From the sequence record ON286975: a stretch of 64,000 bases of DNA; one strand, 5' to 3'. The notes below the pieces were generated by a model that saw only the letters and a list, made by a program, of their open reading frames with translations, was not told the origin of the DNA and ran no database searches. Both the position numbers and the translations under genes were made by a program. The stretch comes from Escherichia phage I29. This document shows, piece after piece, positions 5,436-9,231 of the stretch. The stretch's first letter is position 1. The number at the start of each line of letters is the position of its first letter.

Positions 5436-5706
5436 TTGTCATTTTACATTCTTGAAATTTTAACACAAGACGGTGATTGTGTCTAGTGTCTAAAAAGATT
5501 TTTTCAACCATCAGGCACACGGTATAACCGTCCATCTTGTTGACAACAAAATCTCCAGGATGAGGGAGGATGTCTCCCGGATTGGGGAAACATAGTCCAC
5601 TCAGAAAGGCATCGTCAGTGGTGGACTTAATAGATTTCCACACACTGTCTGCCTGAACATGTTCACCGACGTAATATACATTACCACATGCCTTCATCAT
5701 AGTCAA
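5428..5706 (-). CDS. hypothetical protein, 92 aa
   Basis: ORF overlapping neighbours by a few nt (operon-like packing). Confidence 0.45.
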   Translation of the reverse strand: MTMMKACGNVYYVGEHVQADSVWKSIKSTTDDAFLSGLCFPNPGDILPHPGDFVVNKMDGYTVCLMVEKIFLDTRHNHRLVLKFQECKMTIA

Positions 5707-6602
5707 ACCCTCGCATAAATTAAACTTGTATCAGTATACTTCTTTAATGGGTAAATATCCTGTCCATAGATGCAATCATTAAACACCTCATCTACCCAAA
5801 GGCTACACTTATATCCCATCATTTCTAAAACACTCATCTCTTCTTCGGTAAACTTATCACCACTCTTGCAAGATGTCAATACCTCATTCTGAACTCTTGC
5901 TACCTCGAATCGGTTATTGGCAATATCGCTATTGGCGATCAAATACTCACCTAGAGGGTGTGCGGCATTAAAGATGCACAGTGGACGGCTGACGTAATAG
6001 TCTCCGGGTGTATAAAAATTGTTGAGGTCTTTCACTAGAACATTCTTATCAGTCACTTCATTTATAACATCATGCATATCGCACATCTTTATATGTTTGA
6101 GGATTCCATCTCCCATCACAAAATAAAAACTTGCTGAGACACTTTCGGCATAGATCTTACTAGATCCGTTGTAGTTGTATTTTACTCGGATGCTAACGGG
6201 GGTTTTTCCTGTCGCGTTAGCCATCATCCAAAGAAATGGCAGCTCATACTTCTCCTCTGAGGAAACAAAAGGTGAGGTAGCCAGAGATCGAAAACCTCCA
6301 GAGAAGTTGAAAGTTACAGAACCGCTCCGGCGGTATGATACCGCGTATTCTACTTTTATATCGACGTACCCATTGGAATAGGTGTGTCCTTCATTATCTA
6401 AATATGTCCACTTATCAGACCCAGATACCAATCTACGCTCAATAACCTTCATCACTACAGGAATTAGCGGGTTGGTACAAACCGCTTTTGAAGTAGCTTT
6501 ATCATCTAAAGCCTCGTAAATTGCAGAAAGGATGTCCCCAGCTGAAAGATTGGTTGTTATGTCCTGTTTCCACCGCGTACTAAAACTGTTAAGATTTGCC
6601 AT
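5703..6602 (-). CDS. hypothetical protein, 299 aa
   Basis: First gene of minus-strand block next to divergent intergenic region; no motif recognised. Confidence 0.5.
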   Translation of the reverse strand: MANLNSFSTRWKQDITTNLSAGDILSAIYEALDDKATSKAVCTNPLIPVVMKVIERRLVSGSDKWTYLDNEGHTYSNGYVDIKVEYAVSYRRSGSVTFNFSGGFRSLATSPFVSSEEKYELPFLWMMANATGKTPVSIRVKYNYNGSSKIYAESVSASFYFVMGDGILKHIKMCDMHDVINEVTDKNVLVKDLNNFYTPGDYYVSRPLCIFNAAHPLGEYLIANSDIANNRFEVARVQNEVLTSCKSGDKFTEEEMSVLEMMGYKCSLWVDEVFNDCIYGQDIYPLKKYTDTSLIYARV

Positions 6603-6684
6603 AAGTAAGTGCTCCTATGTTAGTTTTCTTTCGAATGGGTGCACTATATTGTAGAGTTAGAGTAAAGTCAACACGTTTTTGATG

Positions 6685-6713
6685 TTGACATCTGTTGAGA
6701 CAATTGATACGAT
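6685..6713 (+). promoter_or_regulatory. putative sigma70-type promoter
   Basis: TTGACA (6685-6690), 17-nt spacer, TACGAT (6708-6713) in the divergent region, upstream of ATG 6745. Confidence 0.4.
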
Positions 6714-6744: not shown

Positions 6745-7722
6745 ATGAATCTTGAAAAATATTATACACCAGAAGAGTTAGAGCGCTTGCTCAAAAAATA
6801 TAGACGCAAACAGAATAACGCACGGAAACGAGATATAGAGTTCGACCTGTCATGGGAAGAATACCTCCTATTTGGTAAAAAACTTTTAGGAGATGGAGTA
6901 TGCGACTATACCCTTATACCTTTTGACATGCACACAGATGAAAACGGGCTGGGGAATCCTTTCTACCCATCTTTGGAGCGTATAGATGATGAAGGCCCTT
7001 ACGCAATTGACAATTGTTGTGTGGTAGGGTTGAGGTGCAATGCTCTGAAAGACTGTCTGGTAGATAAAAAGACTGCAATCCTGATTAAAGACGAAACTGA
7101 TCGAAAAATTGTCCAGCAGATGATGCTCCACCTGAGCGAAGAGCGTATGGAGAAATTGAAAGGTGATTATACTTTTGAAGATTTCATCTTGCAATATGGA
7201 ACGGAAGAGGATAAACTAGCACTATTTGACGAAGAGGAAGAAGATATGTCACCAATGCAGGACTTTAAAAATTTCATGGCTGATCGTGCAGCCAACAAAC
7301 ACATTTCAGACATCGTGAACGAGACTGTGACAGAAGAAGTTGAAGAACAGAACTCTGAAGAGGAAAAAGAGCCTCAGGAGGTCGAAGAGGGGATTGCAGA
7401 AGAGGTTCCTGCACTGCCTGATGATGTTGAGATTGCTAAGGCTTACACTTTCTATTGTCAAACGTTCTACGATGCAGGTATGAAAGTTGATCTGTCGTTC
7501 AGCCAATTTAAGAGTTCGTATATTCGCAAATGCTGTGCTTTAACTGGTGAACGTCTCGGAGCTGGACTTAAACCACTGTTGGTGACCGACTGGAATAAAG
7601 GTTTCACTAAAGGAAACTTTATGGTAGTATCTCCAATTATGGAGAAAGCTATGACAGATCTTATGAAGACCACCCGCATGACAATGACCGAGTTGGCAGG
7701 TATTTTCAAACACGTTAAATAA
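6745..7722 (+). CDS. protein with two degenerate HNH-like segments and an acidic linker
   Basis: ORF track starts at TTG 6679; ATG 6745 lies downstream of the putative promoter; segments CDY..PSLERID..NCC..CNALK and CALTGERL..DWNKG..KGN flank an E/D-rich linker; no canonical catalytic His seen. Confidence 0.45.
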   Translation: MNLEKYYTPEELERLLKKYRRKQNNARKRDIEFDLSWEEYLLFGKKLLGDGVCDYTLIPFDMHTDENGLGNPFYPSLERIDDEGPYAIDNCCVVGLRCNALKDCLVDKKTAILIKDETDRKIVQQMMLHLSEERMEKLKGDYTFEDFILQYGTEEDKLALFDEEEEDMSPMQDFKNFMADRAANKHISDIVNETVTEEVEEQNSEEEKEPQEVEEGIAEEVPALPDDVEIAKAYTFYCQTFYDAGMKVDLSFSQFKSSYIRKCCALTGERLGAGLKPLLVTDWNKGFTKGNFMVVSPIMEKAMTDLMKTTRMTMTELAGIFKHVK

Positions 7723-7727
7723 TGACA

Positions 7728-7742
7728 GGGGCCAATGGCCCC
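7728..7742 (+). promoter_or_regulatory. GC hairpin GGGGCC-AAU-GGCCCC
   Basis: 6-bp GC stem directly after stop of upstream gene; contains the first in-frame ATG (7735) of the VWA ORF. Confidence 0.4.
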
Positions 7743-7755
7743 TTCTGGAGTTTTA

Positions 7756-9216
7756 ATGGATAGCAGAAGTTCAGAAATCATTGCCTCACAGAAAGATGAT
7801 GCCCTGAGAATGTTGCAGGCTGCACGTATGTATCTCCTTGAAAAGCTGCCGTTTTATGGCACACTACTGTCAGGGTTGCAGTTCGTAGAAAACCACACAT
7901 GGTGCTCCACCATGGCAACCGACCATAAACGCATCTATTACAGTCCTGAGTTCATTATGGGATTGGCTGATGAACGCAAGGCTATTCTTAAGGCTTCTCT
8001 AACTGACGAGCAGTTTGAGATGGCTGAAGTTTTCTATTCCCCAAAATCTGTGAAAGAGGTGGCCTTCCTTCTGTCACATGAGGTGGGGCATATTATCTGT
8101 GATCACCTGGTCCGTGGTAAAAGCTTTGAGCCGGAACTGTTCAATATTGCTTGTGATCACGTTATCAACACAGGCCTTGTGGTTGACTTTAGCAAACCTC
8201 CTTGTGTTTTCTTCCCGAAGGGGAAAAGCACTACGTTCGTGAAAGGTAAGCCTTTTGGCTTCTTAGCCAGCTGCTACTGCGACATGAAGTTTCATGGATG
8301 GATTGCTGAGAACGTTTATGCAGTTCTTGATAAGCAAAGAGATCAGAATAACGGTAAAAGTAAGAGCGGTAAAGGTGAGAACTCTCAAGGTGATAAGCGA
8401 CAAACCGATGATCACATGAGTGGGAATGGTGGCACCAGTGATAATCTTGGAAAGGCTATGGGGTATGATCAGCCACAACCTGTAATCAGCCAATCTGATA
8501 AAGATCAGGCCATGCAGGACTCTGGCGATATGCTGGAGGCAGCAATGCAAGCGTCCGGAGGCCGTTGCCCTGAGGCGGTGCGTGAGTTTGTCAAGAACAG
8601 AGGTAAGCCTGTAATCAACTATATAGACATCATTAAGCAACGCATGTTGTCTAAAAGAAAGGCCGAACTGACCTACAGAAAACCTGGTCGCCGATCTGGT
8701 TCTTTGACCAGCACAATGCGAAAAGTTGGGGCTATAAACAAGAACCAGCACGTTATTGTTCCCGGTCGTAATCCTGAAAACACTATAGATATTGTTGTAG
8801 CTTTAGACGTTTCTGGCTCGATCTCTCAAAGAACTTTAAAGAAAATGTTCAATGAAATCACCGGACTGTGCAATCTGTATAAAGAGTTTAAGGTTACGAT
8901 GTTCTGTTGGTCAACCGAGGTTGGAGAGGTCAAAGTATACACTCGCGGCAACATAGACGAGATGATCAACTATGAGGTCCACTCAACATGGGGCACAACA
9001 GCTGCTTGCGTGTTCGAGTATCTGGATGCCAATATACCGAATGCAAAAGATGTCATCGTCCTGACCGACCTATACTTTGAGCATAACTTTGAACAAAAGG
9101 CTGTTGACAACAAGTGGAAAAAGTACGATACTTTATGGGTTCTCACCGAGGGGTATAATAAAAATTATATCCCGAGCTTTGGGAAAACTGTGGAATTAAT
9201 CGAGTACGCCAAGTAA
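7756..9216 (+). CDS. VWA domain protein with N-terminal metallopeptidase-like segment
   Basis: MIDAS-type motif ALDVSGSIS in C-terminal half; N-terminal HEVGH...CDH segment; ATG 7756 preceded by GGAG, preferred over hairpin-buried ATG 7735. Confidence 0.7.
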   Translation: MDSRSSEIIASQKDDALRMLQAARMYLLEKLPFYGTLLSGLQFVENHTWCSTMATDHKRIYYSPEFIMGLADERKAILKASLTDEQFEMAEVFYSPKSVKEVAFLLSHEVGHIICDHLVRGKSFEPELFNIACDHVINTGLVVDFSKPPCVFFPKGKSTTFVKGKPFGFLASCYCDMKFHGWIAENVYAVLDKQRDQNNGKSKSGKGENSQGDKRQTDDHMSGNGGTSDNLGKAMGYDQPQPVISQSDKDQAMQDSGDMLEAAMQASGGRCPEAVREFVKNRGKPVINYIDIIKQRMLSKRKAELTYRKPGRRSGSLTSTMRKVGAINKNQHVIVPGRNPENTIDIVVALDVSGSISQRTLKKMFNEITGLCNLYKEFKVTMFCWSTEVGEVKVYTRGNIDEMINYEVHSTWGTTAACVFEYLDANIPNAKDVIVLTDLYFEHNFEQKAVDNKWKKYDTLWVLTEGYNKNYIPSFGKTVELIEYAK

Positions 9217-9231
9217 GAGAGGACGTTATTT

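Follow-up and report, generated by a model that had tools for sequence, protein, structure and literature searches.

The 64,000-nucleotide stretch of Escherichia phage I29 DNA analysed here (sequence record ON286975; 'the window') carries, at positions 6745–7722 of the plus strand, a gene whose product we compare with two described proteins, the enzyme PacI and the Srd protein of phage T4. Judged from its sequence, the source phage is an rV5-like Vequintavirus and the gene is the syntenic gp11. Among His-Me finger enzymes that have no general-base histidine, PacI is the best known. It works as a homodimer (PMC3384342) and is a proven nuclease with a Tyr-type site (PMC5714182, PMC4081073), in which a single metal ion is held by one Asp and one Asn and the Tyr of the omega-loop takes the place of His as general base (PMC4081073, PMC5714182, PMC3384342). 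In the 2017 classification of His-Me finger proteins the PacI group comprised fewer than 100 members, and Srd was not mentioned (PMC5714182).

Srd of phage T4 binds RNase E at its N-terminal, catalytic half and speeds up the decay of host mRNA (Qi et al. 2015, as cited in PMC13232886, PMC4980113 and PMC7430671). For gp11 itself, the rV5 genome paper used PSI-BLAST to propose that it is both a T4 Srd homologue and an anti-sigma decoy (PMC3606486). In the literature that we searched, no paper connected Srd to either the HNH or the PacI fold, and neither the fold nor the mechanism of Srd was described. To our knowledge, no phage activator of RNase E other than Srd has been described. Here we argue that gp11 consists of two PacI-type His-Me finger (beta-beta-alpha-metal) domains in tandem, the product of an internal duplication, and we give this structural and evolutionary statement as a whole a high probability.

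Domain architecture of gp11 and its link to PacI

An earlier note on this DNA, made from the letters alone, had described two segments bearing Cys and Asn with an acidic linker between them, and these are present across the gene. The N half reads C53 ... P-S-L-E78-R79-I-D81 ... Y86 ... N90 ... C98-N99-A-L-K102, and the C half reads C263-C264 ... L-L-V-T-D282 ... F287 ... N291 ... E300. We modelled the protein by AlphaFold2 with a 35-sequence alignment and divide it as follows, all on the plus strand. Residues 1–112 (6745–7080) make up the N-terminal PacI-type His-Me finger domain with a complete PacI-type site, the codons of which lie at 6901–6903 (C53), 6976–6981 (E78-R79), 7000–7002 (Y86), 7012–7014 (N90), 7039–7041 (N99) and 7048–7050 (K102). 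A helical extension, residues 113–163 (7081–7233), has predicted helices at 117–129, 132–138, 144–151 and 154–162 with a predicted local distance difference test (pLDDT) score of 84–91. It is followed by a disordered acidic linker, residues 164–222 (7234–7410), recognized by pLDDT and by composition (21 D/E vs 4 K/R), and by the C-terminal degenerate PacI-type domain, a pseudo-nuclease, residues 223–325 (7411–7719). The latter keeps C264 (7534–7536), D282 (7588–7590) and N291 (7615–7617), and has L279, V280, F287, E300 and M303 as equivalents of the catalytic residues. Model confidence is distributed accordingly along the chain: pLDDT exceeds 90 in the N-domain block save at residues 61–70 (68), drops below 50 in the linker at residues 164–169 and 180–222, and is mostly 83–92 in the C-domain, falling below 80 in its last 25 residues. 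The His-Me finger-like fold on which the earlier note had staked its suggestion was checked, and both halves have it.

The case for duplication is built on profiles. Direct BLASTP of the N half against the C half gave nothing significant (E 1.1), and residues 30–80 of T4 Srd match both halves (BLASTP E 6e-7 and 1e-3). With hhalign, the 35-sequence sub-alignments of the N and C halves were linked at E 3.3e-4, and 319 N-type domain instances aligned with 302 C-type instances at a probability of 98.7% (E 2.7e-16, 80 columns), a comparison for which all 20 of 20 column-shuffled controls gave P of at least 0.19. Similarly, an N-terminal profile of the T4 Srd group matched the C-domain profile, made without Srd sequences, at E 2.6e-14. 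Because these profile comparisons and the independent Srd-group profile tie both halves together, we take the internal duplication to be real.

The route to PacI is less direct. No meaningful match to gp11, to its halves or to T4 Srd came from Pfam, NCBIfam or PADLOC, and Pfam searches of ten distant multi-copy relatives gave nothing save one sub-threshold Endonuclease_7 match. PDB sequence searches with gp11 singly and with a 35-sequence family profile found nothing, and Foldseek against the PDB returned weak matches, none at E ≤ 0.001, among which HNH domains dominate and PacI has a probability of 0.89. It was a broad N-type profile, composed of 33 diverse domains including gp11 and T4 Srd, that matched PacI (3ldy_A) among all PDB sequences, at E 9.5e-5 over 84 positions; the sequence link between gp11 and PacI is transitive, as the narrower 35-sequence profile alone misses PacI. 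In this alignment the family consensus 'sldRidnnkgYikgNvvlvtkeaNklK' stands against PacI 'GVDRSDSFEGYSPQNARLACFICNRIK', the PacI motif being G-V-D92-R93-S-D95...G-Y100...N104...C-N113-R-I-K116. Counted from the profile alignment, gp11 E78 corresponds to PacI D92, R79 to R93, D81 to D95, Y86 to Y100, N90 to N104, N99 to N113, K102 to K116 and C53 to C66. The PSLERID segment, which the earlier note had seen as a stand-in for an HH-type motif, is instead a PacI-type motif by its alignment with D92/R93/D95.

At the metal ligands and Tyr that define a PacI-type active site, the N-domain has E78, N99 and Y86 aligned with D92, N113 and Y100, and the C-domain has L279, E300 and F287, at positions that vary in the family. 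By family conservation, the two Cys4 zinc sites per domain are absent from both gp11 domains. Only one Cys is conserved in each (C53 and C264), the equivalents of PacI C63, C109 and C112 are not conserved, and 26 of 319 N-type domains have a Cys at position 98.

We then consider how widely these residues are kept. A two-domain family profile, searched against 1.84 billion cluster representatives, matched 12,279 of them at E ≤ 1e-3 and 543 at E ≤ 1e-10; among the best 150 of the 12,279 matches, many come from long phage-sized contigs. Of the 147 representatives whose domains were analysed, 126 combine exactly one N-type with one C-type domain, and conservation was assessed over 150 N-type domains from 143 cluster representatives (clusters at ≤50% identity). 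R79, Y86 and N90 are each invariant in that set (150/150), position 78 is E in 119 domains and D in 31, position 99 is N in 145 and H in five, K102 is Lys in 141 and C53 is Cys in 148. The canonical catalytic His is missing, as the earlier note had said, and R79 occupies the general-base position in 319/319 N-type domains. Matches found with a profile are biased toward that profile's own motif; despite this bias, the invariance of the N site at ~20–25% overall identity indicates a working site, and the N half is strongly constrained. On these alignments the N-terminal copy keeps the full PacI-type constellation of Glu/Asp and Asn metal ligands, Tyr, adjacent Arg, Asn and Lys. The C-type domains, by the same measure, have hydrophobic or variable residues at positions 279 (F/Y/L/W/V), 280 (V/I), 287 (V/I/Y/L/F), 300 (Q/A/G/R/K) and 303 (L/M/I/V) and keep only C264, D282 and N291, a pattern that marks the C-terminal copy as a catalytically dead pseudo-nuclease retaining only fold-determining residues. 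The inactivated nuclease of the earlier note can thus be recognized in the degenerate C half, but not in the N half with its PacI set and its three invariant residues.

Relatives with more than one intact copy bear on how such a protein might have arisen. P0040, P0044 and P0047 each contain the motif 'S[IL][DE]RID..KGY..N....N' two times, seven proteins have two N-type matches and no C-type match, and P0289, P0317 and P0318 are among the two-N-type relatives; no Pfam family covering the PacI-like domain of these multi-copy relatives was found. Because relatives carry two (or four) intact copies per chain, we infer that tandem duplication of the PacI-like domain gave rise to single-chain dimers, the second copy of which would later have lost its site in the gp11 lineage. 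The four-copy case is P0316, a protein of 852 residues from the dinoflagellate Polarella glacialis with four N-type matches.

The linker behaves differently from the domains that it joins. Residues 164–222 have a net charge of −17, and the linker is unalignable and of variable length among homologues, in which the spacer between domain matches ranges from 44 to 141 residues and its D/E minus K/R from −10 to +25. Across 128 two-domain representatives the median isoelectric point (pI) is 8.8, as expected for nucleic-acid binders, with 17% acidic and 83% basic. The acidity of the linker appears from this survey to be specific to the gp11 lineage and not a family trait. A conserved form of the DNA-mimic role that the earlier note had put forward is unlikely because linker length and charge vary and the family is mostly basic, and we rejected it; a lineage-specific role such as auto-inhibition is conceivable. 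We also observe that the gp11 N-domain on its own is net acidic, which is odd for a presumed nucleic-acid-binding fold.

Candidate functions of gp11

The overall reading that we favour, and that we hold with about as much doubt as conviction, combines the tandem PacI-type fold with an Srd-like effector working with RNase E. On this hypothesis gp11 would be a host-takeover effector directed at nucleic acid, its two domains, unlike and joined in one chain, acting in the manner of the PacI homodimer. The competent site would lie in the N-domain, whose conserved cleft would bind the substrate and might also cut it; the C-domain would serve as a structural or binding module, the non-catalytic partner of the pseudo-dimer; and the linker would serve as a flexible tether. 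Like T4 Srd, gp11 would speed host RNA decay early in infection together with RNase E. The parts of this proposal differ in strength. An RNase E-linked function of gp11 is a tentative suggestion, as binding and stimulation of RNase E are known for T4 Srd only and are carried over to gp11 from homology. That the N site of gp11 is catalytic seems to us rather doubtful, and it is unlikely that the proteins of the Srd family, that of T4 among them, are Tyr-dependent, PacI-type enzymes competent to cleave phosphodiester bonds. Were this so, the RNA or DNA chemistry of the Srd family itself, and not mere docking to RNase E, would underlie phage-induced host shut-off, and the two-domain form seen in gp11 would be an active-plus-dead derivative of the PacI dimer, a natural nickase-like effector.

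Several observations weigh against this proposal. The C-terminal half of T4 Srd (residues 95–248) gave hhalign P values of 0.12 and 0.13 against the gp11 N- and C-domain profiles, respectively. The loss of the zinc sites, and the fact that most family members have Glu as metal ligand where PacI has Asp, may mean that catalysis has been lost. As to the packing of the two domains, the full-length model has a predicted template modelling (pTM) score of 0.54. The protein is also a strongly acidic outlier (pI 4.7, net charge −24) and T4 Srd is strongly basic (pI 10), such that the two are not assured of the same partner or substrate. Lastly, in work by Qi from 2015, Srd-stimulated decay reportedly needed RNase E and, for triphosphorylated RNA, RppH as well; such a requirement argues against Srd as a stand-alone RNase.

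The main rival dispenses with RNase E: gp11 would be a stand-alone PacI-type nuclease whose N-domain cuts or nicks host DNA or RNA, a single-chain nickase in which the dead C-domain serves as the second half of a PacI-like dimer. PacI, with the same site, is a proven nuclease, the full PacI catalytic set is kept across the 150 N-type domains despite clustering at ≤50% identity, some relatives have two intact sites per chain, and the family is mostly basic. We nevertheless consider this improbable, given that gp11 itself is very acidic, that both PacI Cys4 zinc sites are lost with one conserved Cys left, that an unspecific DNase would endanger the phage genome too, and that T4 Srd acts via RNase E in the only experiments reported. 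The lost zinc sites can also be read as one sign among several of a fully inactivated nuclease fold, in which neither domain catalyses and either the folds do no more than bind DNA or protein or the acidic linker mimics DNA. The absent canonical His, the clearly dead C-domain and the linker net charge of −17 would fit, and the devolved His-Me finger of SMAD MH1 provides a precedent (PMC5714182). This explanation seems less probable still: the absence of His is normal in the PacI group, where the replacing Tyr, the Arg and the structural N90 are invariant and the metal ligands (Glu/Asp and Asn) almost invariant, and the acidic linker is lineage-specific and variable in a family 83% of whose two-domain representatives are basic.

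Two further explanations derive largely from database labels. In many GenBank records gp11 is an anti-sigma factor, a sigma70/sigmaS decoy or an anti-termination protein. The label goes back to the name that T4 Srd received in the 1990s ('similarity with rpoD') and has annotation alone behind it. BLASTP against Escherichia coli RpoD gave a best E of 1.7, the profile against RpoD gave P 0.41, and no Pfam sigma-factor model matches gp11 or T4 Srd even at E ≤ 10. We rejected the sigma70 decoy idea after the BLASTP and profile comparisons with RpoD, and regard the whole group of sigma-related roles as extremely improbable: the fold of gp11 is that of a nuclease, and T4 Srd was later found to act on RNase E. 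The same very low probability attaches to a free-standing HNH homing endonuclease, a selfish mobile gene, as the label 'HNH endonuclease' in RefSeq and PHROGs and a fold common to many homing endonucleases might suggest. Its constant presence and position argue against this. A 3.3-kb query around gp11 found 118 phage records at ≥90% identity, with at least 80% of the query covered in 116 of them, and tblastn with the protein found 210 phage records, with at least 80% of the protein covered in 200. The homologues occur across Vequintavirinae genera, their protein identity declining from 99% down to 23% in parallel with phage divergence; in addition, gp11 has its own predicted promoter, and neither a sporadic distribution nor gene interruption was seen.

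Gene identity, start codon and surroundings

The open reading frame (ORF) of gp11 runs from ATG 6745 to the stop TAA 7720–7722 and encodes 325 residues, identified as the rV5 gp11 homologue (Srd-like protein) by the ORF list, rV5 identity, PHROG 3118 and tblastn. Its product is 98.5% identical to the protein at the same coordinates (6745–7719) of Escherichia phage rV5 (NC_011041), the entry for which gives gp011 with the note 'Srd-like protein' and the product name 'HNH endonuclease'; other records have 'anti-sigma factor', 'anti-termination protein' or 'hypothetical protein'. The match to PHROG 3118 ('HNH endonuclease') has E 2.3e-110, and the weaker PHROG matches comprise endonuclease, endonuclease VII, Srd and sigma-decoy families, with E 4.4e-9 for PHROG 1400 (Srd) and E 1.4e-12 for PHROG 4592.

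A consensus scan predicts a sigma70-like promoter at 6685–6713 on the plus strand (TTGACA-17-TACGAT, TG-extended −10, 10/12 matches), the same site as the annotated promoter P11 in rV5 NC_011041, and from this host-type promoter alone gp11 is most likely an early gene. Two other start codons appear in database records. RefSeq rV5 places the start at TTG 6787 (coding sequence (CDS) 6787–7722), giving a product 14 residues shorter, and other records use TTG 6679, upstream of the −10 element of the predicted promoter. The RefSeq start is disfavoured because T8 and L15 are conserved among homologues, and a start at 6787 would drop T8 and place L15 first; TTG 6679 is implausible because the promoter at 6685–6713 puts the transcript start after it. 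ATG 6745 is the start that fits both the promoter and the conservation.

The promoter is part of a symmetrical arrangement. A perfect 7-nt inverted repeat, GTCAACA-N9-TGTTGAC, lies at 6667–6689, and each of its arms holds the −35 hexamer of one of two predicted back-to-back divergent sigma70-like promoters, that of gp11 (6685–6713, plus strand) and one on the gp10 side (6671–6643, minus strand). The repeat could be a shared operator or simply reflect promoter geometry. Upstream of gp11, the opposite strand carries small ORFs and an AAA-type ATPase. The divergent gene at 5703–6602 (minus strand) is called 'putative alpha 1-3 fucosyltransferase' in many records, a name derived from an old and weak resemblance; no Pfam model matches it at E ≤ 0.01.

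Directly 3′ of the gp11 stop codon is a GC-rich hairpin, GGGGCC-AAU-GGCCCC (7727–7743, −18 kcal/mol, z −2.7), and the ATG of the next gene (7735) spans the hairpin loop and the first base of the 3′ arm. The terminator scan flagged this hairpin on the minus strand only, and it is possibly an element of translational control or RNA stability. The downstream gene is a single ORF of 493 residues (7735–9216) that matches Pfam DUF2201_N, a putative metallopeptidase domain (E 1.2e-27), and the DUF2201 VWA-like domain (E 3.6e-11). RefSeq rV5 splits it into CDS 7756–9081 and 8972–9217, named 'HNH endonuclease', probably owing to a frameshift or sequencing error combined with a wrong product name. In rV5-like, Seunavirus and Salmonella phages the Srd-like gene has a DUF2201/VWA gene behind it. 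The annotations of Serratia phage ChuuTotoro and Aeromonas phiA009 show no gene of sufficient size for one in the 3 kb downstream, and on this ground we rejected an obligate functional link with gp11. Finally, sixteen 'Campylobacter phage' records (within MG065635–MG065666), with Campylobacter jejuni as host, match the gp11 region, four of them at 97–98% identity in the nucleotide search. Their host label is doubtful and may reflect contamination or mislabelling.

Comparison with known systems

The gene family to which gp11 belongs is known and annotated; modestly new here are its architecture, its placement in the PacI group and what this implies for T4 Srd. Three conflicting labels (anti-sigma factor, HNH endonuclease, anti-termination protein) are attached to the protein in over 100 GenBank records; in their place we would put a tandem PacI-type His-Me finger with one intact and one dead site, unrelated to sigma factors. 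The tandem architecture is under-described, and it seems widespread on the domain counts given above. The size of the PacI group would change as well, from the membership of the 2017 classification (PMC5714182) to 12,279 profile-matched representatives, and T4 Srd would join it with E64, R65, Y72, N76 and N85 as candidate key residues.

The canonical HNH nucleases (McrA, Gme HNH, the Cas9 HNH domain, T4 endonuclease VII) use a general-base His where gp11 has Arg, and gp11 is without their CxxC...CxxC zinc site; consistent with this, gp11 has no match to Pfam HNH (PF01844 and relatives) or Endonuclease_7 at E ≤ 10. The SMAD MH1 domain offers an analogy for the C-domain only, having kept the His-Me finger fold and lost the catalytic residues (PMC5714182, PMC3384342). 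MH1 is, however, a eukaryotic transcription-factor domain that has kept its zinc site, and we claim no sequence relationship to it.

T4 Srd (NP_049634), the one relative that has been studied by experiment, is much closer. Its N-type domain is homologous to gp11 (BLASTP E 6e-7, gp11 residues 8–143), with a motif, C45, E64-R65, Y72, N76, N85 and R88, that matches the gp11 N-domain, and both are genes of lytic coliphages, that of gp11 standing behind a sigma70-like promoter. In Srd, of 248 residues, a single PacI-like domain precedes a C-terminal half that is basic, helical and unrelated, whereas the 325 residues of gp11 include an acidic linker and a further PacI-like domain, which is degenerate; to judge from these comparisons, the PacI-like N-type domain is what the two share, and nothing else. 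PacI (PDB 3ldy/3m7k; group 20 of Jablonska et al. 2017), in turn, is a 142-residue homodimer, each subunit of which holds two Cys4 zinc sites, and a restriction enzyme that cuts TTAATTAA. In gp11, a phage protein, the two copies lie in one chain, one of them dead, with a long disordered linker, the zinc ligands lost and Glu instead of Asp at the metal ligand.

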